Positions 2,123 to 30,467 are shown, counted from the first letter of the stretch. The stretch is 64,000 bases of DNA from an uncultured archaeon (GCA_964473825.1 CAYYQL010000001.1:160001-224000); one strand, 5' to 3'. Numbers and translations are program-made. Notes: generated by a model not told the origin, from the letters alone.

Positions 2123-3460
2123 TCATGAAAGACATTTTGATAGAGAATCAACAGACTCTCTCTCAAGATTGTCAATCACGCCTATCATTTCGCGAGTCTT
2201 CTCGTCTCCAACGTATTCAGAAGCTACAAACAGTAGATTCTCTCGAACCTCCTCTGGACTAAGACTTGGAAAGTCCTCGCCTTCGATAGAGTACTTCGAA
2301 CCATCGTCCGTGAGTATCTCTACGGAGTTATAGAAGCTCTCATAGGATTCGTTCATCTTAACATCAACCAATGTTGCCAGAGTACTCACATCCTTGTTCT
2401 CGTACTTGGAAACGGTATGCGGGAGCACCGTGCCGAAACGCAACGCAATGCCTGTTGCGCACGGCAATGATTTGTAGGCCTGTGTCTTGTTTACGTATGG
2501 TCCAGAGTCAAGAATCGAGGCTGCAAGAGGGCCGTGAGTGACACGAGGCCCAGCTACAATCTCAATCGACTTTATGTCATCCCAGCTGATATCTTCTCTC
2601 TCACGAAGCACAACTACGTTGTGAATGACTGGGAGAATTGAAGTAATCACTGAATAAGGTTTGAGGGTGGCCTTGGGTGTTAGGAACTCCTTTGCCATCT
2701 TGTCCGGTAACTCCTCAGCTTCTTCGGGAACTAGACCGCAGAAGGCCTTCAGGAATCCCTTTGGGCCGGCAAAGGATGAACGAGCTCCGTTTGCTCCGCG
2801 CTCAGCAAGCAGCGCGCTCACGAGACCATTCTGAGCAGCAAGGCCACTAGCATATAGCCATTCAGGAGTCCCTTCTAGCCAACACTGCATCAAACCCCCG
2901 GCCATATTGGTAGAATGCGATAGAGCGTCAGCAATCTGTAAGCTATCGAGGCCTAGCATCTTGGCAGATGTTGCGGCAACCCCGAGAACACCGTAGATAG
3001 TTGTCCCCCTCCACCCGTTAGGGCTTGTATACTTGGCAAAGGCCTCTCCAACATGAAGATTAATCTCATACCCTGCGACTATCGACTCAAGCAAGGAGGC
3101 GCCGTTTCCCTCACGTTCCTCACCAATCGCAATTGCCGCCGGGATAGTATGAGGGCCGGGATGAAGGCCACGATAAGTGTCTTCTTGCTGAACTCCATGC
3201 ATCAATGTTGCGTTAACAAATGCCGCCAGTGGCGCAGAGGTCTTTCGCTTCCTACCAAGAACCGTGGAATTCCCCTCACCCCGAATGTCATCTAGCGCAA
3301 TCGATGCAGCAATCTGCGTCTCATCCTCACTTATCCCTGCATAGCCCGTATACAAGTGATGCAGAATCAAGGTCTTGGCATGTTCCACTACGTCTCCAGG
3401 AAGAGACTTGTAAGAAATCTCATCTACGAAGTTGGCAATCCTCTCATCTAATGTTGTCAT
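2123..3460 (-). CDS. MmgE/PrpD family protein (divergent copy)
   Basis: 445 aa; AAFVNATLMHGVQQEDT..HPG, IVAGYEI, AAQNGLVSALLAERG, GPKGF. Confidence 0.85.
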   Translation of the reverse strand: MTTLDERIANFVDEISYKSLPGDVVEHAKTLILHHLYTGYAGISEDETQIAASIALDDIRGEGNSTVLGRKRKTSAPLAAFVNATLMHGVQQEDTYRGLHPGPHTIPAAIAIGEEREGNGASLLESIVAGYEINLHVGEAFAKYTSPNGWRGTTIYGVLGVAATSAKMLGLDSLQIADALSHSTNMAGGLMQCWLEGTPEWLYASGLAAQNGLVSALLAERGANGARSSFAGPKGFLKAFCGLVPEEAEELPDKMAKEFLTPKATLKPYSVITSILPVIHNVVVLREREDISWDDIKSIEIVAGPRVTHGPLAASILDSGPYVNKTQAYKSLPCATGIALRFGTVLPHTVSKYENKDVSTLATLVDVKMNESYESFYNSVEILTDDGSKYSIEGEDFPSLSPEEVRENLLFVASEYVGDEKTREMIGVIDNLERESVDSLSKCLS

Positions 3461-3506
3461 TGCTTCCTACTCTCCATTCGTTCTTGAGAAGTGTCATATC
3501 TATGCT

Positions 3507-4292
3507 TCAAACTATATTCACTCCGTGAGGGCTCAGAACGGCTCTTCGAATGGAACCATAGATGGAAGCGAGGGTGTACTCTCCCGTCACCCCCTTGATG
3601 GCAGAAGACCGCTTTATCTCAAGGACTGTGCCCTCACCCCTTGCAACAATATGCTGTACTGCATCATCTGATGTGGGATCAGCTATGAGAACTGCACGAG
3701 TCTTGTCGAAGCCAATCCCTGCTAGGGCCACAATCGCATGTGAGTTCACGTTTCTAGGAAACATACTGCATATTCCTCTCGCGGGTCCATCGTATAGTAC
3801 GGTGGGCTTCGTGATGTCTGCCGTACTATATTTGTCTGTGTAGCTGAAGTCTATGTTCCGGGGGTTCTTTGTAGTGGTTATTGTGACTTCGTCAAGTGTG
3901 TGCTTCGCATCAAAAAGCCCATCCATTCCCAACAATGCGCCGTGTGGAATGAATAAACGTGTTCCATTCGTCGCACAGATATCCCCGAGCTCGTCATAGA
4001 ACTCTGCATCAGCCAGAGCTGTCACTGACAAAACCATCAAATCATTCGATTTCAAAATCTTGGGAGCCAACTCTCTGACAACAGCTGAGTTTGCTGCTTC
4101 CACAATTAGGTCAACAGCCCGATTCCCAATTTGCTCGGGACTGCTAAGCACCCTTCTCTCATCGAGCGCTTTCGTCTTTTCCGGATCTGCGTCAAGCGCA
4201 AAATCAAGAGAAACGTTCTCATCATTTTCAGTCATCTCATACACGTAAAATCCAATTCGTCCGAATCCAATTAGACCGATTTTCTTATCCAT
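3507..4292 (-). CDS. Aspartate dehydrogenase-like NAD(P)-dependent oxidoreductase
   Basis: GLIGFGRIG Rossmann motif, LIVEAA, LSVTALAD, GALLGMDG, TKNP, FPRNVN; ATG at 4292 preferred over GTG at 4310. Confidence 0.85.
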   Translation of the reverse strand: MDKKIGLIGFGRIGFYVYEMTENDENVSLDFALDADPEKTKALDERRVLSSPEQIGNRAVDLIVEAANSAVVRELAPKILKSNDLMVLSVTALADAEFYDELGDICATNGTRLFIPHGALLGMDGLFDAKHTLDEVTITTTKNPRNIDFSYTDKYSTADITKPTVLYDGPARGICSMFPRNVNSHAIVALAGIGFDKTRAVLIADPTSDDAVQHIVARGEGTVLEIKRSSAIKGVTGEYTLASIYGSIRRAVLSPHGVNIV

Positions 4293-4383
4293 AGTATCAC
4301 CAGAAATCACTCTGTATTCGCCTTTGAATATCTACAGCAATGTAAGATTTTTATAATATTCCGATATTTAACTCTTGGCGACA

Positions 4384-4400
4384 AATATTCTAGGAATATT
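4384..4400. promoter_or_regulatory. Palindrome AATATTC-TAG-GAATATT, candidate operator in a divergent promoter
   Basis: Perfect 7-3-7 inverted repeat between divergent operons; half-site recurs in other island promoters. Confidence 0.5.
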
Positions 4401-4784: not shown

Positions 4785-4800
4785 TTTTATATCGAATATT
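4785..4800 (+). promoter_or_regulatory. Candidate TATA box (TTTTATAT) followed by a GAATATT half-site
   Basis: AT-rich TATA-like element about 45 bp upstream of the dppB start. Confidence 0.45.
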
Positions 4801-4835
4801 TCGGCCTGTGCCCCTACGCCTGAGGATGATGACCC

Positions 4836-5843
4836 ATGGGTTTCAAGAAGTACATTCTGAACCGAATAGTAACGATGGCGCTCGTCATATTCTTCATGAT
4901 GACCTTCATCTTCATCGTGATTCACATAATCCCCGGTGACCCTGTTCTTAACATGGTTGGCGAGGATGCACCTCCAGAAGTAATTGAGAAAGTTCGAGCT
5001 GATCTAGGACTCGACCAACCTTTGCACTTGCAATACTTCGACTATATGCTGGGTGCCTTTACTGGAAACTTCGGAAGATCCTTCATTCTCAGGGAGGATG
5101 TTTCATTTCTGATATGGCAACGTGCAGGAGTCACTATACAACTGGCAATTCTTGCGTGGATTTTCTCTGTCGTAATCGGAATAGCAGTCGGAAGGAGGAG
5201 TGCTCGCCACGCAGGTAAGATGGAGGATCATGTGACTAGATTGGCAACTCTGTCTTTATACGCAATCCCGGTCTTCGTTCTTGGGGTTATTTGCCAGCTT
5301 ATATTCGGAGTCTACCTAGAGGTGTTGCCCATCTTTGGCACTCGAAGCCCAGGAATCAGGCCACCGCCTATTACTGGGATGATACTCTTCGATTCATTGC
5401 TTGCCGGGGATTTTGTTGCCTTTGTTGATGCGTTCTCACATTTCCTTCTGCCTTCCCTCGTACTCGCATCCGGGTATGCTGCAGTTACAATAAGGCTAAC
5501 ACGGTCTGAAACTCTGAAAGCGATGAAACGGAGTTATTGCCTTCTTGCAGAAGCAAAAGGCATGTCTGAAAAGACAATCGTGAACAAACATGCGTTCAGA
5601 AATGCGCTCCTACCTGTGGTGACGATTACGGCCATGCAAGCGGGGGCGCTTTTGACCGGCTCGGTTCTGATTGAATCCGTGTTCGTTCTGAATGGTCTAG
5701 GCTCACTATTGCTAACCGCTGCAACGTTAAGAGACTACATACTTACTCAAGGAGTGGTTACCCTATTCGTTCTAACTAATGCAGTTATCGGGCTTCTTAT
5801 CGATATATCATACTACTATCTGGATCCAAGAATGAGATTCTAA
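4836..5843 (+). CDS. dppB: Peptide/nickel ABC transporter permease (DppB/OppB)
   Basis: IPGDPV, LGLDQPLHLQY, HAFRNALLPVVT, YYYLDPR. Confidence 0.93.
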   Translation: MGFKKYILNRIVTMALVIFFMMTFIFIVIHIIPGDPVLNMVGEDAPPEVIEKVRADLGLDQPLHLQYFDYMLGAFTGNFGRSFILREDVSFLIWQRAGVTIQLAILAWIFSVVIGIAVGRRSARHAGKMEDHVTRLATLSLYAIPVFVLGVICQLIFGVYLEVLPIFGTRSPGIRPPPITGMILFDSLLAGDFVAFVDAFSHFLLPSLVLASGYAAVTIRLTRSETLKAMKRSYCLLAEAKGMSEKTIVNKHAFRNALLPVVTITAMQAGALLTGSVLIESVFVLNGLGSLLLTAATLRDYILTQGVVTLFVLTNAVIGLLIDISYYYLDPRMRF

Positions 5844-5882
5844 TCTGAACAGCTAATAGACTGAGAGAGGTATAGAAAGACC

Positions 5883-6800
5883 ATGCAGATAAGTGAAAAC
5901 AGCAGACGGCCGTTAGAAGTACTAAAGGAATACTTCTCAAAGGCAGGGGACAGGATAAAGGAAAGCAAGTTGTGGTCGCTTCAGAGGGTAGACCAAGCTT
6001 CGTTCCTTCTTGGTCTGGGACTCGTCCTGTTTGTTGTACTCCTTGGGCTTGTCGCGGACTTTATAGCACCTTATAGCCCGACGACGATCTATCCTGAAAA
6101 CGTTCTCGAACCTCCTGGTTTCCGAAATATCTTCGGCACTGACACACTCGGTAGGGATGTATGGAGTAGGATTCTCTTCGGGGCAAGAGTATCATTGCTT
6201 GTTGGATTGATATCTGTGCTCATAGCCTCGAGTGTTGGGGTGTTACTCGGGGTCCTCGCTGGTTACTATGGTGGATGGCTAGACCGTCTTCTGACTTTAC
6301 CGATGGATGGTCTTTATGCGTTTCCAGCCTTTCTCACAGCTTTGCTTGTTTCTGTGGCCTTAGGTGGAGGGCCATTGTATACCTCTATCGCAGTTGCTAT
6401 TGGCCTCGTCCCCAGATTCTACAGAACGATAAGGAGCGCAGCTGTATCAATCTCTGAAGAGGAATTCATAGAAGCAGAAGTATCACTCGGTGCTAGCGAT
6501 TTGTACATCGTCTTTCGTCATGTACTACCGCTGACCTTCTCGGTTCTTGTTGTTGTGTTCACAATAAGTGTTGCTACAGCCATACTAAGCATATCGGGTC
6601 TTGGTTTCCTTGGCCTGGGAGTACCTCCGCCAACACCGGAGTGGGGTTCTGACCTAGCGGCGGCCCGCCCGTCCATACTATCGGGCGTCTGGTGGACGAC
6701 CATGGTTCCGTCGGCCTTCATATTCATAACAGTACTAGGATTTAGTCTGCTCGGAGATTCATTGAACAAGATTCTCGGAACTTCGTTAGAGGAGATATAG
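5883..6800 (+). CDS. dppC: Peptide/nickel ABC transporter permease (DppC/OppC)
   Basis: FGTDTLGRDVWSRILFGARVSL, LGFLGLGVPPPTPEWG. Confidence 0.93.
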   Translation: MQISENSRRPLEVLKEYFSKAGDRIKESKLWSLQRVDQASFLLGLGLVLFVVLLGLVADFIAPYSPTTIYPENVLEPPGFRNIFGTDTLGRDVWSRILFGARVSLLVGLISVLIASSVGVLLGVLAGYYGGWLDRLLTLPMDGLYAFPAFLTALLVSVALGGGPLYTSIAVAIGLVPRFYRTIRSAAVSISEEEFIEAEVSLGASDLYIVFRHVLPLTFSVLVVVFTISVATAILSISGLGFLGLGVPPPTPEWGSDLAAARPSILSGVWWTTMVPSAFIFITVLGFSLLGDSLNKILGTSLEEI

Positions 6801-6803
6801 AGA

Positions 6804-7772
6804 ATGAGTGAAATACTGACAGTCAAAGACTTGAAGACACGCTACTTCACTGCCTTGGGTCCCGTGAAAGCCGTCGATGGATGCAGTCTTGGCCTAAGCG
6901 AGAACGAAACACTTGGAATTGCAGGCGAGTCAGGATGTGGCAAGACAACTCTGGCGATGTCCATTCTGCGTCTAATCCACCCTCCGCATAAGGTAATCGA
7001 GGGGTCGGTCATCTACAAGGGTGTTGACCTGATGGCCCTCGATAAGAGAGAATTCGGTGAATACCGCTGGAATGACCTTGCACTGGTTTTGCAGCAATCG
7101 ATGCATGCCCTCAATCCCATGTTTAGGATTTCCGACCAGATGATTGAGCCTCTAACCAGATATGACGACTTCAATAAGCAGGAAGCACTAGACAAGGCGG
7201 GAAGACTTCTTGAATTGGTAGGGATGGATCCGTCTAGGATAAGTAACTACCCTCACGAGTTCTCAGGTGGAATGAAACAAAGAGTCCTCATTGCGATGTC
7301 ATTGATATCAGATCCAAAGGTCTTGTTCTTGGACGAGCCCACTACAGCTCTAGATGTTGTAGTTCAACATTCGATTCTCAAGATGATTCACGAGCTCAAG
7401 GTGAAATTGGGTCTCTCAGTGATGTGGATTACTCATGACCTTGCTGTCTTGTCAGAGGTGTGTGAACGGATTACGATTATGTACGCGGGCAGAATCATGG
7501 AAACGGGATATGCTGAGGATTTGATTCTAGATCCCAAGCACCCATACACAATGGGACTCCTCGGATCTTTCCCCACTATAGACCGGCTGGATAAGGAACT
7601 GACTGCAATACCGGGCAGTCCCCCGAATTTGCTGAGTCCACCTCGCGGATGTCCCTTCAATCCCAGATGCCCGTATATGACTGAAATATGCAAACAGGTC
7701 AAGCCAATCGGAGAGCCTATCGAAGGACGTAAGAAATCCTATATCGAATGCCATAACTGGAGAGAGGTTTGA
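6804..7772 (+). CDS. dppD: Peptide ABC transporter ATPase (DppD/OppD)
   Basis: GESGCGKT, YPHEFSGGMKQR, DEPTTALD, HPYT, C-terminal GCPFNPRC. Confidence 0.95.
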   Translation: MSEILTVKDLKTRYFTALGPVKAVDGCSLGLSENETLGIAGESGCGKTTLAMSILRLIHPPHKVIEGSVIYKGVDLMALDKREFGEYRWNDLALVLQQSMHALNPMFRISDQMIEPLTRYDDFNKQEALDKAGRLLELVGMDPSRISNYPHEFSGGMKQRVLIAMSLISDPKVLFLDEPTTALDVVVQHSILKMIHELKVKLGLSVMWITHDLAVLSEVCERITIMYAGRIMETGYAEDLILDPKHPYTMGLLGSFPTIDRLDKELTAIPGSPPNLLSPPRGCPFNPRCPYMTEICKQVKPIGEPIEGRKKSYIECHNWREV

Positions 7773-7776
7773 TTCA

Positions 7777-8805
7777 ATGTCAAGCAGAGATGAAGCCAAA
7801 TCGGCTATAATCCAGACTCAGAACTTGAAGAAATGGTTCCCTCTAAGTAAGGGACTGGGCGAGATCATATCCAGAGCCCCAAGCGCATATGTCAAGGCTG
7901 TCGATGGCGTTGACATTGTGATTGAAGATGGGACCACATATGGCATAGTAGGAGAGAGTGGCTGTGGAAAGACTACACTCGGAAAGCTTCTGATTCGCCT
8001 ATTAGAACCCACGGACGGATCTCTACAGTTCATCGGTCATGACATCACCCATCTTGGGAGAAAGGAGATGAAACCACTACGTCGCCAGATGCAGATCATC
8101 TATCAGGATCCATTCTCGAGCCTGCCCGTCAGGCTGACGGCAGACGAGATACTCACTGAGCCGTTCCGAATCCATAAGATATGCGAGTGCAAAGAAGAAA
8201 AAGACGAAAGAGTCTACAAGCTCCTTGAAGATGTTGGATTGGAACCTCCGGAAATCTTCCTCGGCAAACATCCCAATCAGATTAGTGGCGGGCAACGGCA
8301 GAGACTCAGTATTGCAAGAGCACTTGCGCTAAATCCTAAATTCATAGTGGCAGATGAGCCTGTTTCTATGTTGGATTTATCAGTCAGAGCTGGAATACTC
8401 AACCTACTTCGACAACTAAAGGATGAGCATGACCTCACCATGTTGCTCATAACGCACGATTTGGCTAGCGCCCAGTATATGTGCAAGACGATTGGCATTA
8501 TGTATCTCGGACGGATAGCAGAAGAAGGCCCAAGCAAGGATGTCTTGGAAGAACCATATCACCCATATACGATGCTCCTCAAATCCGCCTTGGCTACGCT
8601 CGACCCTAGAACCAAGCATCACCTACAGGAGCTCCCAACTGAAGCTGAGATTCCCAGCGCAATCGATCTACCACCTGGTTGCAGATTTAGTACACGATGT
8701 GTTTATTCTAAGGACATCTGCAGGAAAGAGGAGCCACAGCTAAGGGATTTTGGAGGAAGAAGAGTTGCTTGCCATGGGGTCGACAACTGGATTGAAGAGA
8801 ATTAA
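7777..8805 (+). CDS. dppF: Peptide ABC transporter ATPase (DppF/OppF)
   Basis: GESGCGKT, SGGQRQR, DEPVSMLD, HPYT, GCRFSTRC. Confidence 0.95.
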   Translation: MSSRDEAKSAIIQTQNLKKWFPLSKGLGEIISRAPSAYVKAVDGVDIVIEDGTTYGIVGESGCGKTTLGKLLIRLLEPTDGSLQFIGHDITHLGRKEMKPLRRQMQIIYQDPFSSLPVRLTADEILTEPFRIHKICECKEEKDERVYKLLEDVGLEPPEIFLGKHPNQISGGQRQRLSIARALALNPKFIVADEPVSMLDLSVRAGILNLLRQLKDEHDLTMLLITHDLASAQYMCKTIGIMYLGRIAEEGPSKDVLEEPYHPYTMLLKSALATLDPRTKHHLQELPTEAEIPSAIDLPPGCRFSTRCVYSKDICRKEEPQLRDFGGRRVACHGVDNWIEEN

Positions 8806-9398: not shown

Positions 9399-10526
9399 AT
9401 GACACAGAAAATACACCGATTCAAGGGTAGCCATTACGAAATAGGCGTGCAGCATGGTTCTCAGCTGCGAAGTATCATTTCGAACAACGTGATTCCCTTT
9501 GTGGAAACAGAAATGAAGAAGCTTGCCCTCTCAAATGAAGGCATCAGGAGAATAACCAAGAGATATGAAGATCTCATCGGATCTGAGTTTCCAGAAGTCA
9601 TTGACGAGGCCAAAGGGCTTGCTGAAGGAGCGGAATTGGACTATGAAACTGCAATGATGCTTCTGTTCTTCTGGGAGGTCCGAGATACAGTGAGCCATAG
9701 CAAAGGTGCATCTGTTGATTCAACGCCTACCGCTAAGGTTGACTCCGATTGCTCCTCTTTTGTCGCCGCCGGGGATGCAACAGTTGACGGAATGCCTATT
9801 GCAACACAGAACTCTGATTGGCCTCTTACGATGCATGGGAAGGGCTTAGCACAGGTCTTTCATATTAGTCCTGACAATCGATATCGTTTCATTGGAAGAG
9901 GATTAGCCGGTAACCTTGGTCGAAACTCCGTAATTGGATTCAATGAAAAGGGACTAGCATTCGTGGGTTCCGGCATTGTTCAATTCAGAGATGCCGACTT
10001 CGGTTTTCCACCTCTGATAATAACAAGGCTTGGTCTCGAAAGATGTAGTAGTGTTGACGAGTTCGTTCAATTGGTCAGAAGAATACCGTACTACTCACAC
10101 GCAGGAGAAAATGTCGATGTTGTGGACAGAGAAGGGAACATGGCAAGAATATCATTCTCAACCAAGAGAGTAATGACAATACAGACGAAGAACCATTTTG
10201 TTGTTTCAACAAACCACTATCACAATCCTGAGATGAGGAATTTCGGACCCAGAAGCGTCGAAGACTATATGTCGACTTTCAAGAGATATGAACGGCTCGT
10301 AGAGCTTGCTTGGGATAACCATGGTTCTATCGATCGGAGTGTCGTTCAATCCATCATGTCAGATCATAAATATGGAGACCAGCCACCAGATGGCAACAAC
10401 TCAATCTGCAGACATGGAGAAACCCACCACACGTTGTCCAATATGATTTCTCTACCCAGTCTGAACGAGTTTTGGATTTCAGAGGGAAACCCGTGCAAAG
10501 GCAATTACACCAAATATTGTCTATAA
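9399..10526 (+). CDS. Peptidase C45 / acyl-CoA:6-APA acyltransferase family Ntn-hydrolase (copy 1)
   Basis: GSHYEIGVQHG, DCSSF (nucleophile Cys), QNSDW, GFNEKGL, STNHY, SICRH, GNPC. Confidence 0.9.
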   Translation: MTQKIHRFKGSHYEIGVQHGSQLRSIISNNVIPFVETEMKKLALSNEGIRRITKRYEDLIGSEFPEVIDEAKGLAEGAELDYETAMMLLFFWEVRDTVSHSKGASVDSTPTAKVDSDCSSFVAAGDATVDGMPIATQNSDWPLTMHGKGLAQVFHISPDNRYRFIGRGLAGNLGRNSVIGFNEKGLAFVGSGIVQFRDADFGFPPLIITRLGLERCSSVDEFVQLVRRIPYYSHAGENVDVVDREGNMARISFSTKRVMTIQTKNHFVVSTNHYHNPEMRNFGPRSVEDYMSTFKRYERLVELAWDNHGSIDRSVVQSIMSDHKYGDQPPDGNNSICRHGETHHTLSNMISLPSLNEFWISEGNPCKGNYTKYCL

Positions 10527-12333: not shown

Positions 12334-12385
12334 ATCCAATCACATGTGGTTTCAACATGATAACGAATATGAAGTGAGTACAACC

Positions 12386-14490: not shown

Positions 14491-14512
14491 AAGAGAGGAG
14501 CTATGCAAGACA

Positions 14513-17997: not shown

Positions 17998-18016
17998 TTG
18001 ATACACCATTCTCTCG

Positions 18017-20646: not shown

Positions 20647-21630
20647 TTATTCAATCCACTCAGCCACTCTTGCTATCGTAAGAATGTTATTGCCCGGATA
20701 AGCAACCGGGAGTACAGGGACTCCCAAGACCATGCCATCTTGAGGCGCCAAGACCTTCTCTAGCTCGTTGCCGAAGAGGTCATAGATTGTCACCATATGA
20801 TCGCCTTTCTTGACTTCAGTACGGATTCTACACTTTTCGGTAGGCATCATGATTCCTCCATATCTACACCGCACATTCGCTCCTTCAAGAATCCCCCATC
20901 GCTCTGGAGACACAACATCTCCCTCAATAATCCCCGCAGATCTCATGATGTTTTTCATCGCGTCCACAAAGGCACGGACATTTCTCATAAGAGCATCGGG
21001 GAGCCTGTTACTTGAACCACCGAGCTCGGCAATTACGCAGGGAATTCCTCTTTCAGCGCATTCATTTAGCAGCGTCCCCGGATGATGGCTCTGATGCAGA
21101 TAAGTCCACTCTGGGCCCATTGCCTTTGCCAGCTGTATCGACTTTGGATCTTTGCTGACCATGACGCGGTTCGCAAGGTAAAAGAGATTCCCGCCCCCAT
21201 GTAACGAAACGACGTAGTCTGCCTTGGATACTACCTTTGAAACATAAGCATGGATAATCCTCTGCGAGACTGATCCGCTCTCGTTACCCGGAAAGAGGCG
21301 ATTCATGTCATAGTTGTATCTTTCATCCGGATTTCCCCTTGTAGACGACTCGTATGCTCGAGTATTCAGAGCAGGAACCACGATGACCTTTCCTTTAATA
21401 GTACTAGTGCGCAACTCCGTCACCAGACGAACAGCAGCAAGTGTGCCCTCCGCCTCATCACCGTGACAGCAGGCCTCAACCAAGAAGACAGGTCCCGGTT
21501 CTTGCCCACACAGGATGTTGATAGGAATGCCAAGTGGTGAGCCATCTGACCGAGTCGATACTTCTAACCATCCAGATTCAACAATGTCGCGTTTTTCCAG
21601 AATATCATCAATATCAGAGAATATCTTCAT
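20647..21630 (-). CDS. Succinylglutamate desuccinylase/aspartoacylase (M14, AstE/AspA/DoeB-type) deacylase
   Basis: HGDE, DMNRLFPG, LHGGG, AELGG; C-terminal biotinyl-like domain (VKKGD...APQDG). Confidence 0.88.
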   Translation of the reverse strand: MKIFSDIDDILEKRDIVESGWLEVSTRSDGSPLGIPINILCGQEPGPVFLVEACCHGDEAEGTLAAVRLVTELRTSTIKGKVIVVPALNTRAYESSTRGNPDERYNYDMNRLFPGNESGSVSQRIIHAYVSKVVSKADYVVSLHGGGNLFYLANRVMVSKDPKSIQLAKAMGPEWTYLHQSHHPGTLLNECAERGIPCVIAELGGSSNRLPDALMRNVRAFVDAMKNIMRSAGIIEGDVVSPERWGILEGANVRCRYGGIMMPTEKCRIRTEVKKGDHMVTIYDLFGNELEKVLAPQDGMVLGVPVLPVAYPGNNILTIARVAEWIE

Positions 21631-21828: not shown

Positions 21829-23253
21829 CTACCCAGATTCTCCAAAACACTGAATGACTGAAGCGATGAGCTTCTCGTAGCCTGCCAACCCCTGGATATC
21901 ACCATATCCCTCAACAACGAAGAACTCATTGCTTCCATGAGTGTGGCCCCCGAGACCCACACAACCTGTGGCAAATGGAAGATTAAGTGGAGGTTGATTG
22001 AAGACATAGATGGGAATCGTAGCTAGTGAGCTGGGCCAGACTTGAGCGTGAACATCAATACTCTCATACGCCTGAATCAAGGATCTCGCGATGTCTTCAT
22101 CTACTGAGGTCCGACATGTTTCGACACTTGCCAATTCTTCAATAACAATCCCGTCGAAACCGTGCGATGAAAGGTGTTTCTCGATCAGCTTTCGAGTTCT
22201 TGTAGGGCTTTGGCTTGGGATTAGCCGCATGTCAAGCTTGGCCCTTGCTTCGGATGGAACTACCGCTTCCGCGCCTTCGTTTATGTAACCACCCCAGATC
22301 CCATCTATGTTGATCTGCGATGTGAAGAAGAGTCGTTTCAGCAAATTCAAAGGCTCTATTTCATCATCTATGAGATTAGCTACTCCCAGACCTTCTTTGT
22401 AGGAGTCAACATCGAAATCTTCAGCCAAGTTTTCTACCAGTTCCATGAAGGTTGCATCAGGAGGAACAATATCATCTCCGAAGCCATCAATTACTACCTC
22501 ATTGCCATTCTCGTTCGTCATGGATGCTAGTGCGTGAACCAGATGCCATACTGGATTGTCTACTGCTGCTCTATGCATGCTGTGAATCTCATCATCCGGA
22601 CCTCTATGCCATGTACCGCTTGAGCAGCTCAGCTCAAGGTATGAAACCCCCTTATAGCCAAGCTGAACCCGTGCCACTCCCTTAGAATTTTGAGAAGAGA
22701 AAGGCATGTAGAGAGCATCCGCATTCTTCAGATTCTCCGTGTAATCTGCAACAAAAGACGGGAGATTCGGACTGAACATCTCTTCTTCGCCATCAATAAC
22801 GACCATGATGTTTACGGGAAAATCGTCGGAAACACTCTGAATACTCGAGATGGCATTTAGGATGCCGGTCACCTTCATCTTGTTGTTGACGCCTCTAGCA
22901 ACCAAACACTTACCCAATCCGGGTTTCTCGACAATTTCGCCGCCGTATGGAGGGAAATGCCACTTCTCCTCTTCTACAGGATTACTATCATATGCACCGT
23001 ATAGCAAGAGGGTCTTATCAGGACTAATCGAGGAGGAATATTCACCGTAAACAGTTGGATTTCCTTCTGGATTGTAGAGTTCAACAATGTGAAATCCGAT
23101 TTCGACCATCCACTGGCTGATAAACCGGGCACACTCTCGTGTGCCACGACCTTCAACTGAAACACTTGGATGCTTGACAAAGTCCTGCAAGCCCTTAAGA
23201 TGAACATCGCTGTGACTATCGATATACGCATGAATTTCTTCCAATAATGGCAT
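21829..23253 (-). CDS. M20/M25/M40 family metallo-hydrolase homologue
   Basis: PSVS, GNPTVYG, YD..P..W..PP, GEEE, INIDGIWGGY, H..NE; ATG at 23253 preferred. Confidence 0.88.
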   Translation of the reverse strand: MPLLEEIHAYIDSHSDVHLKGLQDFVKHPSVSVEGRGTRECARFISQWMVEIGFHIVELYNPEGNPTVYGEYSSSISPDKTLLLYGAYDSNPVEEEKWHFPPYGGEIVEKPGLGKCLVARGVNNKMKVTGILNAISSIQSVSDDFPVNIMVVIDGEEEMFSPNLPSFVADYTENLKNADALYMPFSSQNSKGVARVQLGYKGVSYLELSCSSGTWHRGPDDEIHSMHRAAVDNPVWHLVHALASMTNENGNEVVIDGFGDDIVPPDATFMELVENLAEDFDVDSYKEGLGVANLIDDEIEPLNLLKRLFFTSQINIDGIWGGYINEGAEAVVPSEARAKLDMRLIPSQSPTRTRKLIEKHLSSHGFDGIVIEELASVETCRTSVDEDIARSLIQAYESIDVHAQVWPSSLATIPIYVFNQPPLNLPFATGCVGLGGHTHGSNEFFVVEGYGDIQGLAGYEKLIASVIQCFGESG

Positions 23254-23330
23254 TAATATCCCGACAGAAAGAAGCAACCACCCATTATTTGTTATTTTCG
23301 AATTGCGCGGCATGCAGACTCCTAGTTGAA

Positions 23331-24530
23331 TTAAGAGTGGAGAACATCTACTTGCTTCGTATCCCTTGTGATTGCGAGAGCTGCAATTGCGGCAGTAACC
23401 ATCAGTACTGCTGCTATCTTGAAGATTGATGGGATTCCGAGAATAGTTGCTAGAATTCCTGCAACTACAGATCCAAACCCTGAACCAATATTGAACATTG
23501 TGGATAAGTAGGCCGCTGAAACACTTCTGGCTCCTGGCTCTGAATGTTCAGCAAGCATAGTGTATTCGGCAACGACTCGGAGACCAATCATTACACCAAA
23601 CATAGCCATCAACACTGCCAATACTATGAAATCCGTCATCTCAGAGATAAGGTAGTAGATAGCAGAAAGCGAAAAGAACGCCACAACAATACACCATCTA
23701 TAGTCCGTCCTGTTCAGCATCTTCCCAACCGGAAGTCTCACCGCCATATCTGTTGCACTCCTCACACCAAAAAGCAACGCCACGAGAGCAGCCGGGATCA
23801 GGAGAGAATTCTCTGCGTGGATAATGAAGAAGGTTATGAAAAATGCATAGGTGATTGCGTAGGCCAGACGGAGATAGGAGAGCAATAGCATATCTCTCGA
23901 CCTCAATATGTTAGTCATAGAAGAAGCAAGACTCGGACGTTCTTCGCCACCCGTTGGCTTCCTCAGATACTCGCCGTTTCGAGCGACAATCAGAAGCACC
24001 AAACCTATCAGAGGAACAATCGCTGCCACTTGAAATATCTGAGCATAGTCCATCATAGTTAGAAGAAAGGAACAAAGAAAGCTCCCGAGCATCGAAGCGA
24101 CGCCGTATGATGTCAAGAAGGCCCCCATGGTTTCACTCTCGCGGCCGCGAGGAGCAAGATTTTGAGATATAGCAACTGCAACAGGTACTACTGGTGCGAT
24201 AATGACTGCATGAATGATCTGGATGGCGTAGAACGCGTCTGTAGTAGATGCAATCGAGTACATCCATTGAACTATGCTCTGGCCCACTGCTGCCAGACCC
24301 AGTATATTCTTAGCAGGAATTGCCTCGGAGAACGCACCCAGTGGAATCTTCGCAATCATCAATCCAAACGAGAGCAATCCTATGACAAGGCCTAACTCGA
24401 CAGGAGATGCTCCAATCCTAGTGACGTGTAATGGGAGAATGGGACGGGTTGTTTCGACAGCAAGGAAGACTGTTACTGACGTAACAATGAGCACATAGAA
24501 CTCTGATGGATAGGTTCTTTCACTCACCAT
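23331..24530 (-). CDS. MFS transporter (paralogue A)
   Basis: About 12 hydrophobic segments; PILPLHV..IGAS, APRGRESETMG. Confidence 0.9.
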   Translation of the reverse strand: MVSERTYPSEFYVLIVTSVTVFLAVETTRPILPLHVTRIGASPVELGLVIGLLSFGLMIAKIPLGAFSEAIPAKNILGLAAVGQSIVQWMYSIASTTDAFYAIQIIHAVIIAPVVPVAVAISQNLAPRGRESETMGAFLTSYGVASMLGSFLCSFLLTMMDYAQIFQVAAIVPLIGLVLLIVARNGEYLRKPTGGEERPSLASSMTNILRSRDMLLLSYLRLAYAITYAFFITFFIIHAENSLLIPAALVALLFGVRSATDMAVRLPVGKMLNRTDYRWCIVVAFFSLSAIYYLISEMTDFIVLAVLMAMFGVMIGLRVVAEYTMLAEHSEPGARSVSAAYLSTMFNIGSGFGSVVAGILATILGIPSIFKIAAVLMVTAAIAALAITRDTKQVDVLHS

Positions 24531-24875
24531 AGAACATCATGTCTCCCACGATTATTGCAAATCCGAGCGAATTTTCCATATATTCGGGAAATAAACCTTC
24601 ATATAAAAACCGGTATTCGCCACAGTTCCAGCCAGTCTTTCGGGAACTTAAGATGATTCAAACAATGAATGCCTGAAGAGGAAACATCACAAGTTGCCTC
24701 GAACGCCTGTCTAAGGCAAATTCTGTACCGAGTGGTTCAACTCGCGCGAAGAGTATCGCGAGAGAACTCAGATTATGTATCATATCTTCCACGTGGAATT
24801 TTTTTTGCGAATATTCATCGGAATGGCAAGGGAATATCAGAGAATATATTAAGGTGAATCATTGTATTTTAAAAT

Positions 24876-26339
24876 ATGCCAGGCAATAATAAGTTCAGGA
24901 TGTATCAGTATCTTCAGAAACACAAGTCTGAAATAATGTCAGATATAGCAGCGAAGTCGGATGAGGTGAAGGTACCAAAGGATCAGTACGGCAAAATCGG
25001 GATGGGCGGGGGTTCTGGAACGCCACCTACCATCGCGGATAACATTCTAGAAGCGATGCACAAGGCCAGCAAGGAAGTAGTATCGCTTGTTACCTATATT
25101 GATAGAGTCCGAGACATGGTCAAGGACTTCTACGGAGACGATTATGATGCCACCGTTATGAGTACGGCTGAAGCTGCGCTCTGGGTCTCGTTTGAGGCTC
25201 TTGTGACACCACCCACACTGGGGAGAGGAAGCTCATACAGAGCAGCATACATCGCACCCTATGAAAGACATTTACATCATCAGGGAGGATATGGACGGCC
25301 ATTCCCACCCAAATACAAGGAGCTGTTCAGTGATCGTGGTGTTACGTCAGGAGAACTCGGTTTATCTGGAAAGAGACTATCCAATCTGGATTCTCTCATT
25401 GTGCCTCTTGAGGGAGCTCGTTACCCCGCTCACGGCATTAAGTATCATCCTGTACCCATTCTCACAGAGGTTGACCCCGATGCTTCAGCTGAGAGAATGA
25501 GAACAGTTGCAGAGAGACATATTGACCGTCTGGCAGCCTTCACATCTTTGGGGTATGACACAATCGGTTATGGATACAACATAAAGGACAAAGACGGAAC
25601 CCCAATGCTTCAGAAACTCATTGGAGAACTCGCAATGAAGTACGATGTGCCCTATATTTGTGATAATGCAAGGGGCACCCCGTTCTTGGGAACAGATCCT
25701 AGAAAGAACAATGCAGATGTCATGATGTACAGCATGGACAAAGCTGCAGGAGGACCAACATGCGGTCTCATTCTCGGAAAGGAAGATGTGATGGTTCCTG
25801 TCCGGAAGGCAATGGGAGTCCACGGAGCACGCGAGGGCACATCCTCATCATTTGGAAAAGCCGCGTACGTCATGGCTGATCCAGGAAAGGAGGCTCTAGC
25901 GGCAGTAGTGGTGGCCCTTGAGAATATTATCGAAAGGGGTGATGTGATGGAAGAGAATGTCAAACAGATGCACAAGACGGTCAAAGAGGTGACCTCAGAA
26001 TCCAATCTCATGAAGCAGGATGGTTGGAGAATCACACCCACGATAAACGGAATGGCAGTTGAAATCAACTATGCAGATACCTGGAAGGGCAGCGATTGGG
26101 GAATGCCCATATTCAGCATTGAGGATATGTATGCTGCCAGCAACTTGATACAGAGGGGAACGCCTCAGCTAGGAATTCGACCGCCATTGTGCTATGACGG
26201 AAACCTATTCTTAGTGATGGGACAGGCTAATCTAGATTCGGAAGGACGACTGCTTCCAGATGTGGTTGAGCTCTGTGTGAGGGGTTTGGTCGCAACGCTT
26301 GAAACTATAGCCGAGTGGGCCAGCAAGATGGAGAAGTAG
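24876..26339 (+). CDS. Fold-type I PLP-dependent enzyme, distantly SelA/DgaE-like
   Basis: A.KYDVPYICDNA, ADVMMYSMDKAAGGPTCGLILGK (PLP Lys motif). Confidence 0.75.
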   Translation: MPGNNKFRMYQYLQKHKSEIMSDIAAKSDEVKVPKDQYGKIGMGGGSGTPPTIADNILEAMHKASKEVVSLVTYIDRVRDMVKDFYGDDYDATVMSTAEAALWVSFEALVTPPTLGRGSSYRAAYIAPYERHLHHQGGYGRPFPPKYKELFSDRGVTSGELGLSGKRLSNLDSLIVPLEGARYPAHGIKYHPVPILTEVDPDASAERMRTVAERHIDRLAAFTSLGYDTIGYGYNIKDKDGTPMLQKLIGELAMKYDVPYICDNARGTPFLGTDPRKNNADVMMYSMDKAAGGPTCGLILGKEDVMVPVRKAMGVHGAREGTSSSFGKAAYVMADPGKEALAAVVVALENIIERGDVMEENVKQMHKTVKEVTSESNLMKQDGWRITPTINGMAVEINYADTWKGSDWGMPIFSIEDMYAASNLIQRGTPQLGIRPPLCYDGNLFLVMGQANLDSEGRLLPDVVELCVRGLVATLETIAEWASKMEK

Positions 26340-26372: not shown

Positions 26373-27443
26373 ATGGATTACAAGGAAAGCATGCTAGAAG
26401 TCATTGGAAACACTCCTCTACTCAAACTCAACAGAGTTGGCAAGGACGTTCCCGCAAACGTATTCGTAAAACTCGAACATCTCAATCCCAGTGGAAGCTA
26501 TAAAGACAGAATGGCACTATCCATGATTGAAGCCGCTGAGAGGGGCGACACTTGGAACGGAAAGAAGCTTGAACCAGGCGGCACTGTCTGTGACGCGTCT
26601 GCCGGAAATACAGCTCCTGCCCTAGCATTTGTCTGTGCCATGAAAGGCTACAAAATCAAACTCTGTACTTATGCTCACTTCCTTCACTCAGGCGACAAGA
26701 ACATGAGCGCTAGGCTAAAAATCAGCTCGGCCTTCGGGGCAAATCACTATCCTTGCCCGTTGCCGTGCGACGAAGTACTCGATGCGTTTGAAACAGACAA
26801 GGAACGCAGATTTGCGGTCATAATCGCCGGTAAGCATCACATGTATGAGATGGAACGTGATAATCCTGACGTTGTCTGGGTAGACCAGATCTACAACGAT
26901 GCAAACTGGAAGGGCCAGATGCCTATGGGCGAGGAGATTCACACCCAACTCGAGGGTAAGATCGACGCGTGGGGAGCCTCTGTGGGTTCTGGAGCAACAT
27001 TTCTAGGTGTTGCAACGGCCCTCAAGAACCATGGTGTAGAACCATATACATTCGGTGTAGTTCCTGACGAAGGAACAAGTCTTGTAGATATCAGCACCGA
27101 TATCATGGATAGCACGACCATGGGCCGACCCCCGCTCCGCATGAAGATCTGTGAGATGCTCGGACTTGATAAATGGGTAACAGAAGACTCGATTGTTGAG
27201 AAGATGTACAAGAGAGGTTATCCGGATGAATGGTTCGGAGTGACACAGGATGATGCTCGAAATATGGCCAACAGGCTATGCAAGGAGGAAGGCATCTATT
27301 GTGGTATGTCGTCAGGAGCAAACGTTCACGCAGCGCTGCAAATAGCTGAACGACTTGATGAGGGACAGAATATTGTGACCGTCATTGTCGATCGCCGTGA
27401 CAGATACATGGACGAGTATCCAGAGGACAAGTACGTGGTCTAG
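26373..27443 (+). CDS. Cysteine synthase family (fold-type II PLP) enzyme, divergent
   Basis: IGNTPL, KLEHLNPSGSYKDR, AGNT, EEGIYCGMSSGA, IVTVIVDRRDRY. Confidence 0.88.
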   Translation: MDYKESMLEVIGNTPLLKLNRVGKDVPANVFVKLEHLNPSGSYKDRMALSMIEAAERGDTWNGKKLEPGGTVCDASAGNTAPALAFVCAMKGYKIKLCTYAHFLHSGDKNMSARLKISSAFGANHYPCPLPCDEVLDAFETDKERRFAVIIAGKHHMYEMERDNPDVVWVDQIYNDANWKGQMPMGEEIHTQLEGKIDAWGASVGSGATFLGVATALKNHGVEPYTFGVVPDEGTSLVDISTDIMDSTTMGRPPLRMKICEMLGLDKWVTEDSIVEKMYKRGYPDEWFGVTQDDARNMANRLCKEEGIYCGMSSGANVHAALQIAERLDEGQNIVTVIVDRRDRYMDEYPEDKYVV

Positions 27444-27497: not shown

Positions 27498-28655
27498 ATG
27501 GAAAGAGCTAAGGGAATCATGAAGGAGAGGAATCTGGATGCACTCCTTGCTTCCTCCCCTGAGAATTTCTTCTACGCAGGTGACCTCTATATTCCGTTCA
27601 TAGACCGTTTTCGCGGGTTCTCTAGCGGATTCGGACAGTTCGTGCTGTTACCCCTTAACGGAGATCCCGTGTTATGCGTGACAGCCCTTGATGCAGATCT
27701 GGCCAAAGTGGTTTCACCCATTAAAGACCAGAGATTCACAAAGACATGGGCTTACTTCAAGAGGGAAGAAGGTGATGAAATCGATGTCTACGAGAACACG
27801 GTTGTGGCACTTGAAGACGTTCTGAAAGAGAAAGGGCTCATGAAGGCGAGAATTGGCATCGAAGAGAAAACACTCCCTATCGTTGACTACCGTAAGATTG
27901 TAGAGAAACTGCCAGATGCCAAGTTTGAGAATGCATCCAAGACCTTCTTAGACATAAGGGCGGTCAAAATCCAGGAGGAAGTCGACCGCATAAAGAGAGC
28001 CTGCGAAATCTCCGAAAAGGGATTCGAGGCTGCCTTCTCGGTGGCGAAAGAAGGAGCCACAGAAGCGGACTTCTTGGGAGCATTCCAGCTTGAAATCACC
28101 AAGCAAGGTGGTTACATGCACAAGGGCCTGATTCATCAGAATCTCACCATCGGAAAGGAATCTGCAACAGTCAGAAGGGGTTGGCCTCTGGAGCACAAAT
28201 TGAAGAAAGGAGATGTTATGAGGTTTGATGGGGGCGCCATATATTACGGCTATCGTTGTGATTTCGCTCGCTGTCGTGTACTGGGGAAGCCTTCTGAAAA
28301 AATTCTGAAACTATACAATGCCCTCACTGAGGCAGAGAAGCGTATCATCGACATGATAGAGCCTGGCGTCAAGTTCTCAGACCTCTTTAAGACCGGAATT
28401 AAGACAGTCCGAGAGATGGGATATCCCGACTTCGAACGGTCCCATCTCGGCCACGGACTCGGTCTGATAACAGAGGAAGAACCTCTAGTGAATCCCAACA
28501 ACGACATCGAGCTTGAGGAGAACATGGTCCTCTCTATAGAGGTCCCATACTACTGGACTGGGGTTGCAGGGTTCAACGTTGAAGATGTAGTCCATGTCAC
28601 TTCTGGTGGCCATGACATATTCACGCCCAATCTCCATCGAGGACTGGAACTCTAG
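27498..28655 (+). CDS. M24 (Xaa-Pro peptidase/creatinase fold) family hydrolase
   Basis: Metal ligands in FDGG..GYRCD, GHGLG, SIEVP, VEDVV. Confidence 0.9.
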   Translation: MERAKGIMKERNLDALLASSPENFFYAGDLYIPFIDRFRGFSSGFGQFVLLPLNGDPVLCVTALDADLAKVVSPIKDQRFTKTWAYFKREEGDEIDVYENTVVALEDVLKEKGLMKARIGIEEKTLPIVDYRKIVEKLPDAKFENASKTFLDIRAVKIQEEVDRIKRACEISEKGFEAAFSVAKEGATEADFLGAFQLEITKQGGYMHKGLIHQNLTIGKESATVRRGWPLEHKLKKGDVMRFDGGAIYYGYRCDFARCRVLGKPSEKILKLYNALTEAEKRIIDMIEPGVKFSDLFKTGIKTVREMGYPDFERSHLGHGLGLITEEEPLVNPNNDIELEENMVLSIEVPYYWTGVAGFNVEDVVHVTSGGHDIFTPNLHRGLEL

Positions 28656-28667
28656 GAGTGCTAAGCC

Positions 28668-29069
28668 ATGAAATACGAAGATTGTGTGCTCAAACCACGG
28701 CCGAGTGAGGAAATCCAACACCATGATAGCTCTGTAATGAACAAGACAGGGCAATCGTATGTGCTGCTTGATGACATTCACTACGATGGCGCGGGGATTC
28801 GAGTCACCACACGGCACATTGATGATGTCCCTGAGGACATGCCAGACTATGTAGAGCTGCATACTCATGACGTAGACCAGGTCTTCATATTCCTCGATGA
28901 ACCAGGAAATAAGAATCCTCTACAGGCTGAAATTACGCTCGAAGACGAAAAGTACATTGTAACTGCTCCCGTTTCTGTGTTCATTCCCAAAGAGGTCCCT
29001 CATTCTCAAAGAGTGATCAAGGGTACGGGCAGAATGGTTACAATCTTGAAGAAGGGGAAATACCCCTAG
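28668..29069 (+). CDS. Cupin domain protein
   Basis: LHTHDVDQVFIF and VFIPKEVPHS cupin motifs. Confidence 0.8.
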   Translation: MKYEDCVLKPRPSEEIQHHDSSVMNKTGQSYVLLDDIHYDGAGIRVTTRHIDDVPEDMPDYVELHTHDVDQVFIFLDEPGNKNPLQAEITLEDEKYIVTAPVSVFIPKEVPHSQRVIKGTGRMVTILKKGKYP

Positions 29070-29129
29070 CAACCATGGACTCTGACTCTGAGACCTCCTA
29101 TACCTCCAAGAGTCGAAAACGACCTCCTC

Positions 29130-29175
29130 GGGATGTGAAGGATGGGTAGACCTTCACATCCCCTACTTTTTTTTT
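29130..29175 (+). terminator. 12-bp stem hairpin with T9 tail
   Basis: GGGATGTGAAGG-N9-CCTTCACATCCC followed by ctac and T9. Confidence 0.85.
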
Positions 29176-29279
29176 CTCCCATGAACGAGTTTCAAGCAGA
29201 TACTCAGTAGCTGAAAAGCGGTGGCAAGAATTCCTTCAATCTCCCGTGCAAGGACGACCATTGGATCTGACCATGGGAG

Positions 29280-30467
29280 CTATTCACTTGCGGCAAGATC
29301 CACTGAACCGCGCACTTGGGTGGATATCAGTGTGGCTGCAAACATTATTGCCCCCGCTATCTTGAAGCCGAGAGACATAGAGAAAATCATGACAATATAT
29401 CCGCCGACAATTGCTCCGAAGCCCCGGCCGATATTGTCTATTGTTGACATATAACCTGAGGTCATCGAGCGGGCACCCTCGGGAGAGTTATCCGCCAGCA
29501 TTATCCATTCTGATGTGACCCTTACACCCGTTGCCAGGCCAGTCAAAAAGAGAACAGCTGTGAGCTCAAAGGGAGCTTGAATCTCCGATAGCACATAGTA
29601 GAGGAATCCAAGTACTGCATAGGAACCCACAAGGGCCCATCTGTAGTCAATCCTGTCAAGCATGCGCCCCAGAGGAAATCGAGCAATCAAATCAGCTGCA
29701 CCCATCGCGGCAAGCATAAGTGTTATTGTAGATGGAAGAAACAAGAGATTGACCTCTGCATGCACTACGAAGAATGCCCCAAAAAACCCGAAAGTTGTAG
29801 CATAGAGAAAACGGAGAAAACTAACGAAATTCACATTCCTAGAGCGCACAAGTAAGCCCAGCTCTTTAATCACGTTGCGCTCAGAACCAGTTTCAGCTAT
29901 ACCTAACTGAACAGACCCCTTCACAAACAGAAATGGAAGAACACCCAGTAAAGGTATGGAAGACGAAATGAGGAATATCTGTGCATAATTCATAGAAAGG
30001 AGTAGCAGCGAAGAGATGACTGGACCGATTGTCGCCGCTATTCCGTAGGCACACAAATAGAAACCCATTGCTTCTCCCCTTCTACCATCTGGCGCCATCT
30101 TCTGAGAAGCTGCAATGCCCACAGACACCAACGGGGCTATGGTTATTGCATGAAAAATCTGAGTAAACAAGAAGCAGTTTGAAGTAGTACATACGGAATA
30201 GAGAACCTGAGTTATAGCCTGCCCACTCGCCGAAAAGGCAAGGGCCTTCTGCATCGTCGATCTTTGTGCAAGGATTCCTGCTGGTAGCTTAGTGAAGGTA
30301 AGGACAAAAGACAATATGCCCATTACAGCCCCTATCTCAAGGGACCCAGCTCCCAAGACTAAGAGGTGAAGAGGTAGAATTGGCAGACTGATGTTGTAAG
30401 CAAGAAAGATGGCCAGCGTGGAGATCACTAAAAGAAAGAACTCTTTCGGATAATCCTGGAATTTCAA
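29280..30467 (-). CDS. MFS transporter (paralogue B)
   Basis: YPKEFFLL..PILPLHL, APDGRRGEAMG; similar to 23331..24530; TTG start at 30467 after AGGAGA. Confidence 0.88.
   Translation of the reverse strand: MKFQDYPKEFFLLVISTLAIFLAYNISLPILPLHLLVLGAGSLEIGAVMGILSFVLTFTKLPAGILAQRSTMQKALAFSASGQAITQVLYSVCTTSNCFLFTQIFHAITIAPLVSVGIAASQKMAPDGRRGEAMGFYLCAYGIAATIGPVISSLLLLSMNYAQIFLISSSIPLLGVLPFLFVKGSVQLGIAETGSERNVIKELGLLVRSRNVNFVSFLRFLYATTFGFFGAFFVVHAEVNLLFLPSTITLMLAAMGAADLIARFPLGRMLDRIDYRWALVGSYAVLGFLYYVLSEIQAPFELTAVLFLTGLATGVRVTSEWIMLADNSPEGARSMTSGYMSTIDNIGRGFGAIVGGYIVMIFSMSLGFKIAGAIMFAATLISTQVRGSVDLAASE

Follow-up and report, generated by a model that had tools for sequence, protein, structure and literature searches.

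A conserved accessory gene cluster of Asgard archaea with a likely role in uptake and catabolism of a peptide-like or N-acyl amino-acid substrate

Introduction

The described systems closest to the locus reported here are: the doeABCD/eutABCDE genes of Halomonas and Ruegeria; the murein-peptide salvage route of Escherichia coli; and the staphylopine cnt loci. The locus is a gene cluster at 2123-30539 of a 64,000-nucleotide stretch of DNA from an uncultured archaeon (GCA_964473825.1, CAYYQL010000001.1:160001-224000; the whole stretch is called the window, and positions are counted from its first letter). The source genome, G000, is a Thorarchaeota metagenome-assembled genome of 3.27 Mb in 103 contigs, 95.7% complete, and its relatives carry the label Candidatus Thorarchaeota. 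The window DNA is also found in microbial-mat metagenomes. Most Asgard archaea have not been cultured, and what they use as sources of carbon and nitrogen is deduced from their genes.

Each described system matches the cluster in part. The doeABCD/eutABCDE genes share with it an M24 protein, an AstE/AspA-type deacetylase, a class III aminotransferase fold and a fold-type-II pyridoxal 5'-phosphate (PLP) enzyme, with an OCD-family gene in one Asgard genus, and both would be accessory catabolic islands with a transporter. In contrast to doeABCD/eutABCDE, the cluster proteins do not pass the corresponding equivalog models, the transporter is of another type, and about a dozen further genes are conserved in Asgard archaea: C45, M19-like, M20, two MmgE/PrpD, aspartate-dehydrogenase-like, DUF6917, SelA-like PLP, TIGR04076 and 289-aa. 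In E. coli murein-peptide salvage, Dpp/Mpp import operates with MpaA, LdcA, PepD and an epimerase. Here, too, a family-5 solute-binding protein (SBP) and Dpp-type importer accompany an M14-clan amidase, an M20 dipeptidase and stereocentre-inverting enzymes; unlike that route, the Asgard cluster lacks an S66 or muramidase gene and has many extra enzymes, and the likeness is one of family rather than orthology. The cnt loci likewise combine a family-5 SBP, a Dpp-type ATP-binding cassette (ABC) importer and a major facilitator superfamily (MFS) transporter in one locus, whereas the cluster has no CntL/CntM-type synthases, its SBP misses the CntA model, and its neighbouring metal regulator is not conserved.

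Results

The cluster recurs as a unit in other Asgard genomes

The genes of the cluster are conserved as a unit with an all-or-none distribution. Neighbourhoods of 60 kb around each copy of the gene for a 487-aa PLP enzyme were searched with all cluster proteins. Genomes G001 and G002 belong to the genus of G000; G003, G013 and G031 belong to other genera; and G124 is a member of a different Asgard family. Nearly the whole set lies within 23-35 kb, in varied gene orders and at 47-97% identity, in G002, G003, G013, G031 and G124; beyond the genus of G000, this takes in four genera and a second Asgard family. The G002 copy is collinear with the window, including its feoB/dtxR and TFIIB flanks. 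In G003, G013 and G031, nearly the whole set is found at 47-86% identity, but its genes are rearranged in order and orientation and the genes on its flanks are unrelated, and G124 carries a compact 21-gene, 22.7-kb version in the gene order of G003. Half of the cluster occupies a 20-kb contig in G016. Recurrence of the same gene set in other genera places the grouping far beyond chance. The sequence-only reading of this DNA, which treated these genes as one unit, had proposed co-occurrence in other genomes as a check, and the genes do co-occur elsewhere, all or none and in rearranged order.

The presence sets agree across both halves of the cluster. The 487-aa PLP gene occurs in 6 of 36 same-family genomes, and orthologues of the PLP enzyme (at least 59% identity) and of the CysK-like protein (at least 76%) occur in an identical set of 10 of 400 Asgard genomes. 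Among 61 relatives, DUF6917 and C45 orthologues are found in the same cluster-bearing genomes; the M19 variant has the same presence set plus one 4.3-kb fragment in G027. Most cluster families have no copy elsewhere in G000.

The cluster comprises 24 open reading frames (ORFs) on both strands, in about seven units of strand and spacing:

2123-3460, minus strand: MmgE/PrpD paralogue 1 (N domain 184 bits; C domain 23.6, below the Pfam cut-off of 32.1)
3507-4310, minus: aspartate-dehydrogenase-like NAD enzyme (best PDB match 2dc1; below all NadX equivalog cut-offs)
4836-8805, plus: DppB, DppC, DppD and DppF of a peptide/opine-type ABC importer (two BPD_transp_1 permeases; two ATPases, each ABC_tran plus oligo_HPY)
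9399-10526, plus: C45 Ntn-hydrolase a (NF040521, 185 bits against a cut-off of 85)
10661-12280, plus: family-5 SBP of the importer (generic DppA/GsiB/NikA-like matches only)
12344-13672, plus: class III aminotransferase-fold PLP enzyme, transaminase or racemase (below all equivalog cut-offs)
13993-14490, plus: DUF6917 beta-barrel protein (family match; predicted model)
14465-15595 and 15676-16761, plus: C45 Ntn-hydrolases b and c (the three C45 proteins score 185, 231 and 190 bits against the same cut-off)
16948-18063, minus: M19-family protein without three of five zinc ligands (PF01244, 278.9 bits against 26)
18017-19372, minus: MmgE/PrpD paralogue 2 (canonical; N and C domains both above the Pfam cut-off)
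19391-19711, minus: small protein of TIGR04076, a family without assigned function (50.9 bits against 33)
19759-20628, minus: 289-aa protein of an unnamed family (predicted NagB/RpiA/eIF2B/CoA-transferase-like fold; Cys-rich C-terminal tail)
20647-21630, minus: AstE/AspA-family (M14-clan) deacylase (profile matches)
21829-23313, minus: M20 dipeptidase/acylase-type hydrolase (neighbour of an MFS gene in every copy)
23331-24530, minus: MFS transporter, conserved copy (profile match and neighbourhood comparison)
24876-26339, plus: 487-aa fold-type-I PLP enzyme, distantly DgaE/SelA-like, of a large unnamed family
26373-27443, plus: CysK/CBS-fold PLP enzyme with altered loops (the most conserved cluster gene)
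27498-28655, plus: M24 creatinase/prolidase-type hydrolase (profile matches)
28668-29069, plus: 133-aa protein, possible cupin (weak: Cupin_2 E 0.012; PDB E about 1)
29280-30539, minus: second MFS transporter, an extra paralogue seen only in this genus (G000, G001, G002)

Pfam and NCBIfam scans bear out each family named in the sequence-only reading, leaving the 289-aa and 133-aa proteins without a family. The cupin among its genes is a weak call. Its total of 23 genes gives way to 24, which is also what its own list sums to; its seven or so transcription units agree with the strand and spacing seen here.

The smallest version conserved comprises 21 genes and has a single C45 gene and a single MFS gene. 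The conserved blocks are: MmgE/PrpD paralogue 1 and the aspartate-dehydrogenase-like gene, which adjoin in all cluster copies; DppBCDF; DUF6917 and C45; M20 and MFS; the SBP and the class III enzyme; MmgE/PrpD paralogue 2, TIGR04076, the 289-aa protein and AstE, with M19 adjoining in most copies; and the PLP enzyme, CysK-like, M24 and 133-aa genes. C45 b and c are lineage-specific extra copies absent from the compact G003 and G124 versions, and orthologues of C45 a are confined to cluster-bearing genomes. The two MFS paralogues of the window share 39% identity. Other genera add genes of their own: an Lrp/AsnC regulator and an OCD-family gene in G003, and a Xaa-Pro-dipeptidase-like amidohydrolase in G031.

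Several observations concern individual copies. In G013, the triad of DUF6917, C45b and C45c is duplicated, and the cluster copy holds a 243-aa ORF (L016:3020-3751) with at least five full or near-full copies in G000 (contigs C4, C5, C52, C65 and C80) and broken matches on C5; this ORF is probably an insertion-sequence gene. In G027, a 99%-complete genome of the same genus as G013, a 4.3-kb contig (L187; G027:C130:1-4276) carries a mere fragment of the cluster, made up of M19, a 321-aa ORF and a class V PLP gene, and orthologues of the PLP enzyme, DUF6917 and C45 were not found in that genome; this remnant reflects either partial loss or an assembly gap. Distant homologues in G060 (PLP enzyme 39%, DUF6917 42%, CysK-like 58%) are dispersed, with no comparable cluster. 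The one TGA flagged within the PLP genes of G123 and G124 is their stop codon and does not encode selenocysteine.

Apparent transfer and composition

A quick maximum-likelihood tree search for the PLP enzyme, with the root placed on a long branch leading to a paralogue, groups all cluster copies in one clade (Shimodaira-Hasegawa-like approximate likelihood ratio test, SH-aLRT, 100); within it, the G003 copy branches as sister to those of the second family (SH-aLRT 99). This placement points to transfer of the whole unit, which thus appears, from the gene tree, to have moved between Asgard lineages and families.

The unit character claimed for a self-contained island stands. Its composition shows no sign of an island. 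The GC content of the cluster is 47.2% against 49.2% for the genome, at the 6th percentile of 28-kb windows, and its tetranucleotide distance is ordinary. Neither a tRNA nor flanking direct repeats were found at the cluster.

Deviant active sites and named-function models

The sequence-only reading held that at least six enzymes deviate at family-defining residues. Three were checked: altered residues are present in the M19 and CysK-like proteins, and the aspartate-dehydrogenase-like protein falls below the NadX cut-offs. Relative to the binuclear zinc site of Sco3058 (3id7), the M19 protein carries Glu to Gln, His to Gln and His to Asn changes, so that the His, Asp, bridging Glu, His, His set of an M19 membrane dipeptidase is not present. 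The CysK-like protein retains the PLP lysine, has altered SAGNTA and GSGAT loops, and contains insertions. These residue changes are invariant in four to five genera (four for M19), in proteins that are about 60-85% identical. Retention of the altered residues across genera argues for constrained new active sites rather than decaying genes.

The start of the M19 gene is probably the ATG at 17997, not 18063: the longest ORF overlaps the end of the PrpD gene, and the matching N-terminal extension in G002 holds a TGA. By tblastn, the CysK-like gene at 26373-27443 is the sole CysK/CBS-fold gene in the 95.7%-complete G000, and a canonical cysteine synthase was not seen.

Other enzymes are remote from named functions. 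Against the NCBIfam aspartate-dehydrogenase models, at subfamily or equivalog level, the best score of the aspartate-dehydrogenase-like protein is 143.5 against a cut-off of 177. The 487-aa PLP protein scores 34.7 against 385 for the DgaE model TIGR01437, and its alignment to 7lc0 covers the PLP-lysine region only (about 60 residues). The class III fold enzyme scores 327 against a cut-off of 800 for the Leu/Met racemase model. The importer has the two permeases, two ATPases and family-5 SBP of the Dpp/Opp type, and no named specificity model was passed by the SBP (10661-12280).

These scores bear on a specific form of the catabolic reading, in which the cluster would degrade ectoine, hydroxyectoine or a related N-acetyl-diamino-acid osmolyte. 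Family membership agrees with this proposal: DoeA (M24), DoeB (AstE/AspA), DoeD (class III) and EutB (PALP fold) families are all present, G003 has an OCD-family, EutC-like gene, DoeB is the only named model matched among AstE-family models, and the DNA comes from microbial mats. The scores themselves fall widely short: M24 against DoeA, 71 vs 613; the AstE/AspA protein against DoeB, 91 vs 402.7; EutB, 34 vs 413; and the OCD-family gene found only in G003 against a EutC-type model, 148 vs 472. The ectoine-pathway models TIGR02993, TIGR02994, NF005680 and TIGR02992 are all missed. The transporter is peptide-type, not TRAP or Ehu, and the proposal leaves C45, M19, M20, both PrpD proteins, DUF6917 and the SelA-like enzyme unexplained. 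The ectoine parallel drawn earlier thus survives at the level of families and fails at the DoeA and DoeB models, and ectoine catabolism as such is improbable.

A second proposal bears on the feoB/dtxR genes, which lie next to the cluster in the window as the sequence-only reading described. By this account, the CysK-like and aspartate-dehydrogenase-like enzymes would build an aminocarboxylate or opine-type metallophore, MFS would export it and Dpp would re-import it. The family-5 SBP, Dpp-type importer and MFS do recall the cnt layout of the staphylopine loci, feoB/dtxR adjoins the cluster in this genus, and the CysK fold includes SbnA-type N-alkylating synthases. The feoB/dtxR adjacency is confined to the window's genus, however, and was not found in G003, G013, G031 or G124. 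Among the window ORFs there is no nicotianamine-synthase-like, opine-dehydrogenase or siderophore-synthetase family, the NRPS-independent type included. Against the CntA model, whose cut-off is 800, the SBP reaches 107, and the CysK-like protein scores 134 against 350 for the SbnA model TIGR03945; the OCD-family gene of G003 scores 73 against 327 for the SbnB model TIGR03944. Five hydrolase families are also hard to fit into a synthesis. The cluster is probably not a metal-chelator factory, and the metallophore suggestion made from this DNA earlier is now very unlikely.

DUF6917 and the PLP enzyme are linked in a bacterial operon

The 487-aa PLP family has more than 1000 members, most of them in Bacillota, Thermotogota and Sumerlaeota at about 52% identity. 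Of 72 bacterial loci, 66 have a DUF6917 gene immediately upstream of the PLP gene. In Asgard copies, the DUF6917 gene instead lies just upstream of a C45 gene. As DUF6917 belongs to the left half of the Asgard cluster and the PLP enzyme to the right half, their adjacency in bacteria ties the two halves together. No other cluster family is shared with the 72 bacterial loci.

The bacterial operon runs: a GntR/FCD (or YheO-type) regulator, DUF6917, RidA, the PLP enzyme, a FAD oxidoreductase, an 85-aa protein, a 620-aa B12-binding protein, and a KamB-type aminomutase reactivase (226 bits against a cut-off of 210). FAD/DAO oxidoreductases and the imine deaminase RidA are among the neighbours of the PLP enzyme. 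An example is L034:8051-16086, with 70 other bacterial loci, and cultured carriers include Sporomusa, Heliorestis, Pseudothermotoga and Desulfotomaculum. From its gene content, the operon looks like an undescribed B12/PLP route of amino-acid fermentation or deamination. The DUF6917 (about 35-43% identity) and PLP-enzyme (50-53%) pair is what it shares with the Asgard cluster; unlike the operon, the cluster lacks RidA, B12-binding and KamB-like genes and keeps its two shared genes 10 kb apart, and the operon has none of the cluster's hydrolases. The S11/S66 cell-wall peptidase genes upstream of some bacterial DUF6917 operons adjoin housekeeping genes (ScpA, M50) and were not counted as linkage.

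The DUF6917 model is a beta-barrel (mean predicted local distance difference test, pLDDT, 86) with no convincing solved relative (Foldseek best E 0.1; VIA best Z 4.7). A literature search on DUF6917, TIGR04076, MmgE/PrpD with aspartate dehydrogenase, the KamB reactivase, and DUF1177/AroM/DUF917 found nothing useful.

The 289-aa protein provides a further bacterial context. Its unnamed family has 674 matches, three C-terminal cysteines are invariant, and the model (pLDDT 81) moderately matches a NagB/RpiA/eIF2B/CoA-transferase-like fold (VIA Z 9.7, Foldseek E 1e-3). Outside Asgard archaea, family members lie in two contexts. The first is between DUF1177 and AroM, with hydantoin/Asp-Glu racemase, DUF917, an M29-like peptidase and often Dpp (L110:3245-8308 and similar metagenome loci); this context lends the catabolic reading some of its flavour. 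The second comprises aconitase subunits, a fumarate-reductase-like flavoprotein, an Fe-S protein and a fumarase C-terminal domain (L113:7940-9769, L112:7135-10012).

These separate contexts bear on the proposal that the locus is several independent peptide or amino-acid scavenging operons, held together by shared regulation or inheritance and not by one pathway. Consistent with this, modules come apart outside Asgard archaea (the PLP enzyme with DUF6917; the 289-aa protein elsewhere), the roughly seven transcription units lie on both strands, the SBP resembles generic DppA/GsiB proteins, and C45 and MFS copy numbers vary by lineage. Set against these points, four markers from both halves share identical presence sets, the full set survives heavy reordering and apparent transfer between families, the families are absent elsewhere in the genome, and the non-canonical active sites are conserved. 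The last two observations also uphold the earlier judgement that generic peptide scavenging explains the locus poorly. Independent scavenging operons are unlikely, though the likeliest of the three proposals weighed in these sections.

Borders and neighbouring genes

The right-hand border given earlier, at 30,467, is probably too short, as two genes at 30696-33028 often travel with the cluster. The genes beyond the second MFS gene are:

30696-31661, minus strand: 321-aa protein without a family (accompanies the cluster in G002, G013, G027 and G031)
31895-33028, plus: class V (SufS-like) PLP enzyme, loosely tied to the cluster
33367-34326: TFIIB gene, beyond the cluster

The 321-aa ORF and class V PLP gene lie within the cluster in G013; one or both are at its edge in G031 and G003, and on the G027 fragment. 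A family scan and a PDB sequence search gave no match for the 321-aa protein, and a PDB sequence search gave none for the TIGR04076 protein. Two Gly/Arg-rich winged-helix-like segments make it possible that the 321-aa protein is a regulator.

At the other end, between feoB and dtxR, a 155-aa hydrophobic ORF without a family (927-1394) is conserved in the congener (80% identity). Two near-identical copies of an 18-nt direct repeat, AATATCAGAGAATATMTT, lie at 21610-21627, in the 5' end of the AstE-like gene, and at 24833-24850, 26 nt upstream of the PLP gene. These are its sole two matches in 64 kb, with 0.15 expected. The repeat may be a shared regulatory site, or may be chance.

Discussion

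Taken together, the data favour an accessory cluster that takes up and catabolises a peptide-like or N-acyl amino-acid substrate. A minority of Asgard archaea carry it, in the Thorarchaeota and in one further family. The catabolic reading is the likely one, on grounds of two kinds: an SBP-dependent importer stands beside five amide-hydrolase families used nowhere else in the genome; and amino-acid-type regulators occur in sister clusters, with PLP, RidA and flavoprotein associations in bacteria. Uptake with stepwise breakdown, one of two directions offered by the sequence-only reading, is in keeping with the importer, with the hydrolases of five families and with the deaminase-type setting of the PLP enzyme in bacteria. 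The direction, the order of steps and the substrate class are those that we infer from gene content.

The proposed route would begin at the family-5 SBP, with the binding of one small compound, either peptide-like or an N-acylated amino acid, or of a narrow set of such compounds. DppBCDF would import the compound, and MFS would carry a related substrate or product. Amide bonds would then be cut in turn by C45, the metal-ligand-depleted M19 protein, the AstE/AspA-type deacylase, M24 and M20. The two MmgE/PrpD proteins might epimerise or dehydrate the unusual amino or carboxylic acids released, and the aspartate-dehydrogenase-like enzyme could oxidatively deaminate the resulting acids. The PLP enzymes (class III fold, CysK-like, and SelA-like with DUF6917) would deaminate, racemise or beta-eliminate. 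The end products would be central keto-acids and ammonia.

As substrates, the most plausible are peptides with D-, beta- or iso-linkages that would derive from the necromass of cell walls or cyanobacteria, and N-acylated (N-acetylated) diamino-acid mat osmolytes. An N-linked aspartate is a possible candidate by analogy, given the iminodisuccinate-epimerase precedent in MmgE/PrpD and the constant PrpD-aspartate-dehydrogenase pairing.

Some points weigh against uptake and catabolism. Some C45 proteins are acyltransferases, most CysK-like enzymes serve biosynthesis, and an MFS carrier may act in export; with these roles, the cluster might instead run a scheme of synthesis, export and re-import. 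In the Pfam and NCBIfam scans, no cluster protein passes a model tied to a named function. No regulator can be recognised in the G000 copy of the cluster. The large number of hydrolases might also point to several substrates, not one pathway.

A bolder version of the catabolic reading is more tentative. The cluster may amount to a complete and hitherto undescribed pathway, passed between Asgard lineages as one unit, that deals with a single metabolite which is abundant in mats or sediments but has escaped notice. Such a metabolite might be a D- or iso-linked peptide, or else an aspartate or diamino acid with an N-substituent. If so, the new chemistries would be: a zinc-free M19-fold amidase; a two-component lyase of DUF6917 and a fold-type-I PLP enzyme, shared with a widespread bacterial B12-dependent fermentation operon; and an MmgE/PrpD epimerase coupled to an aspartate-dehydrogenase-like C-N-cleaving dehydrogenase.

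What is new here is that the two halves belong to a single unit of 21-24 genes, agree in their presence sets and are bridged by the DUF6917-PLP linkage; that the deviant active sites are conserved; and that the unit is present in a second Asgard family. For DUF6917, TIGR04076, the 487-aa PLP family (more than 1000 members) and the 289-aa RpiA-like family (more than 600), the cluster offers a first functional handle. The link to a B12 aminomutase-like operon leads to cultured bacteria, some of them amenable to genetics, in which the chemistry is open to study. For the Asgard archaea themselves, a unit of 21-24 genes that has its own importer and is present in only a few percent of genomes singles out a particular nutritional niche in microbial mats, and could help in the design of enrichment media.

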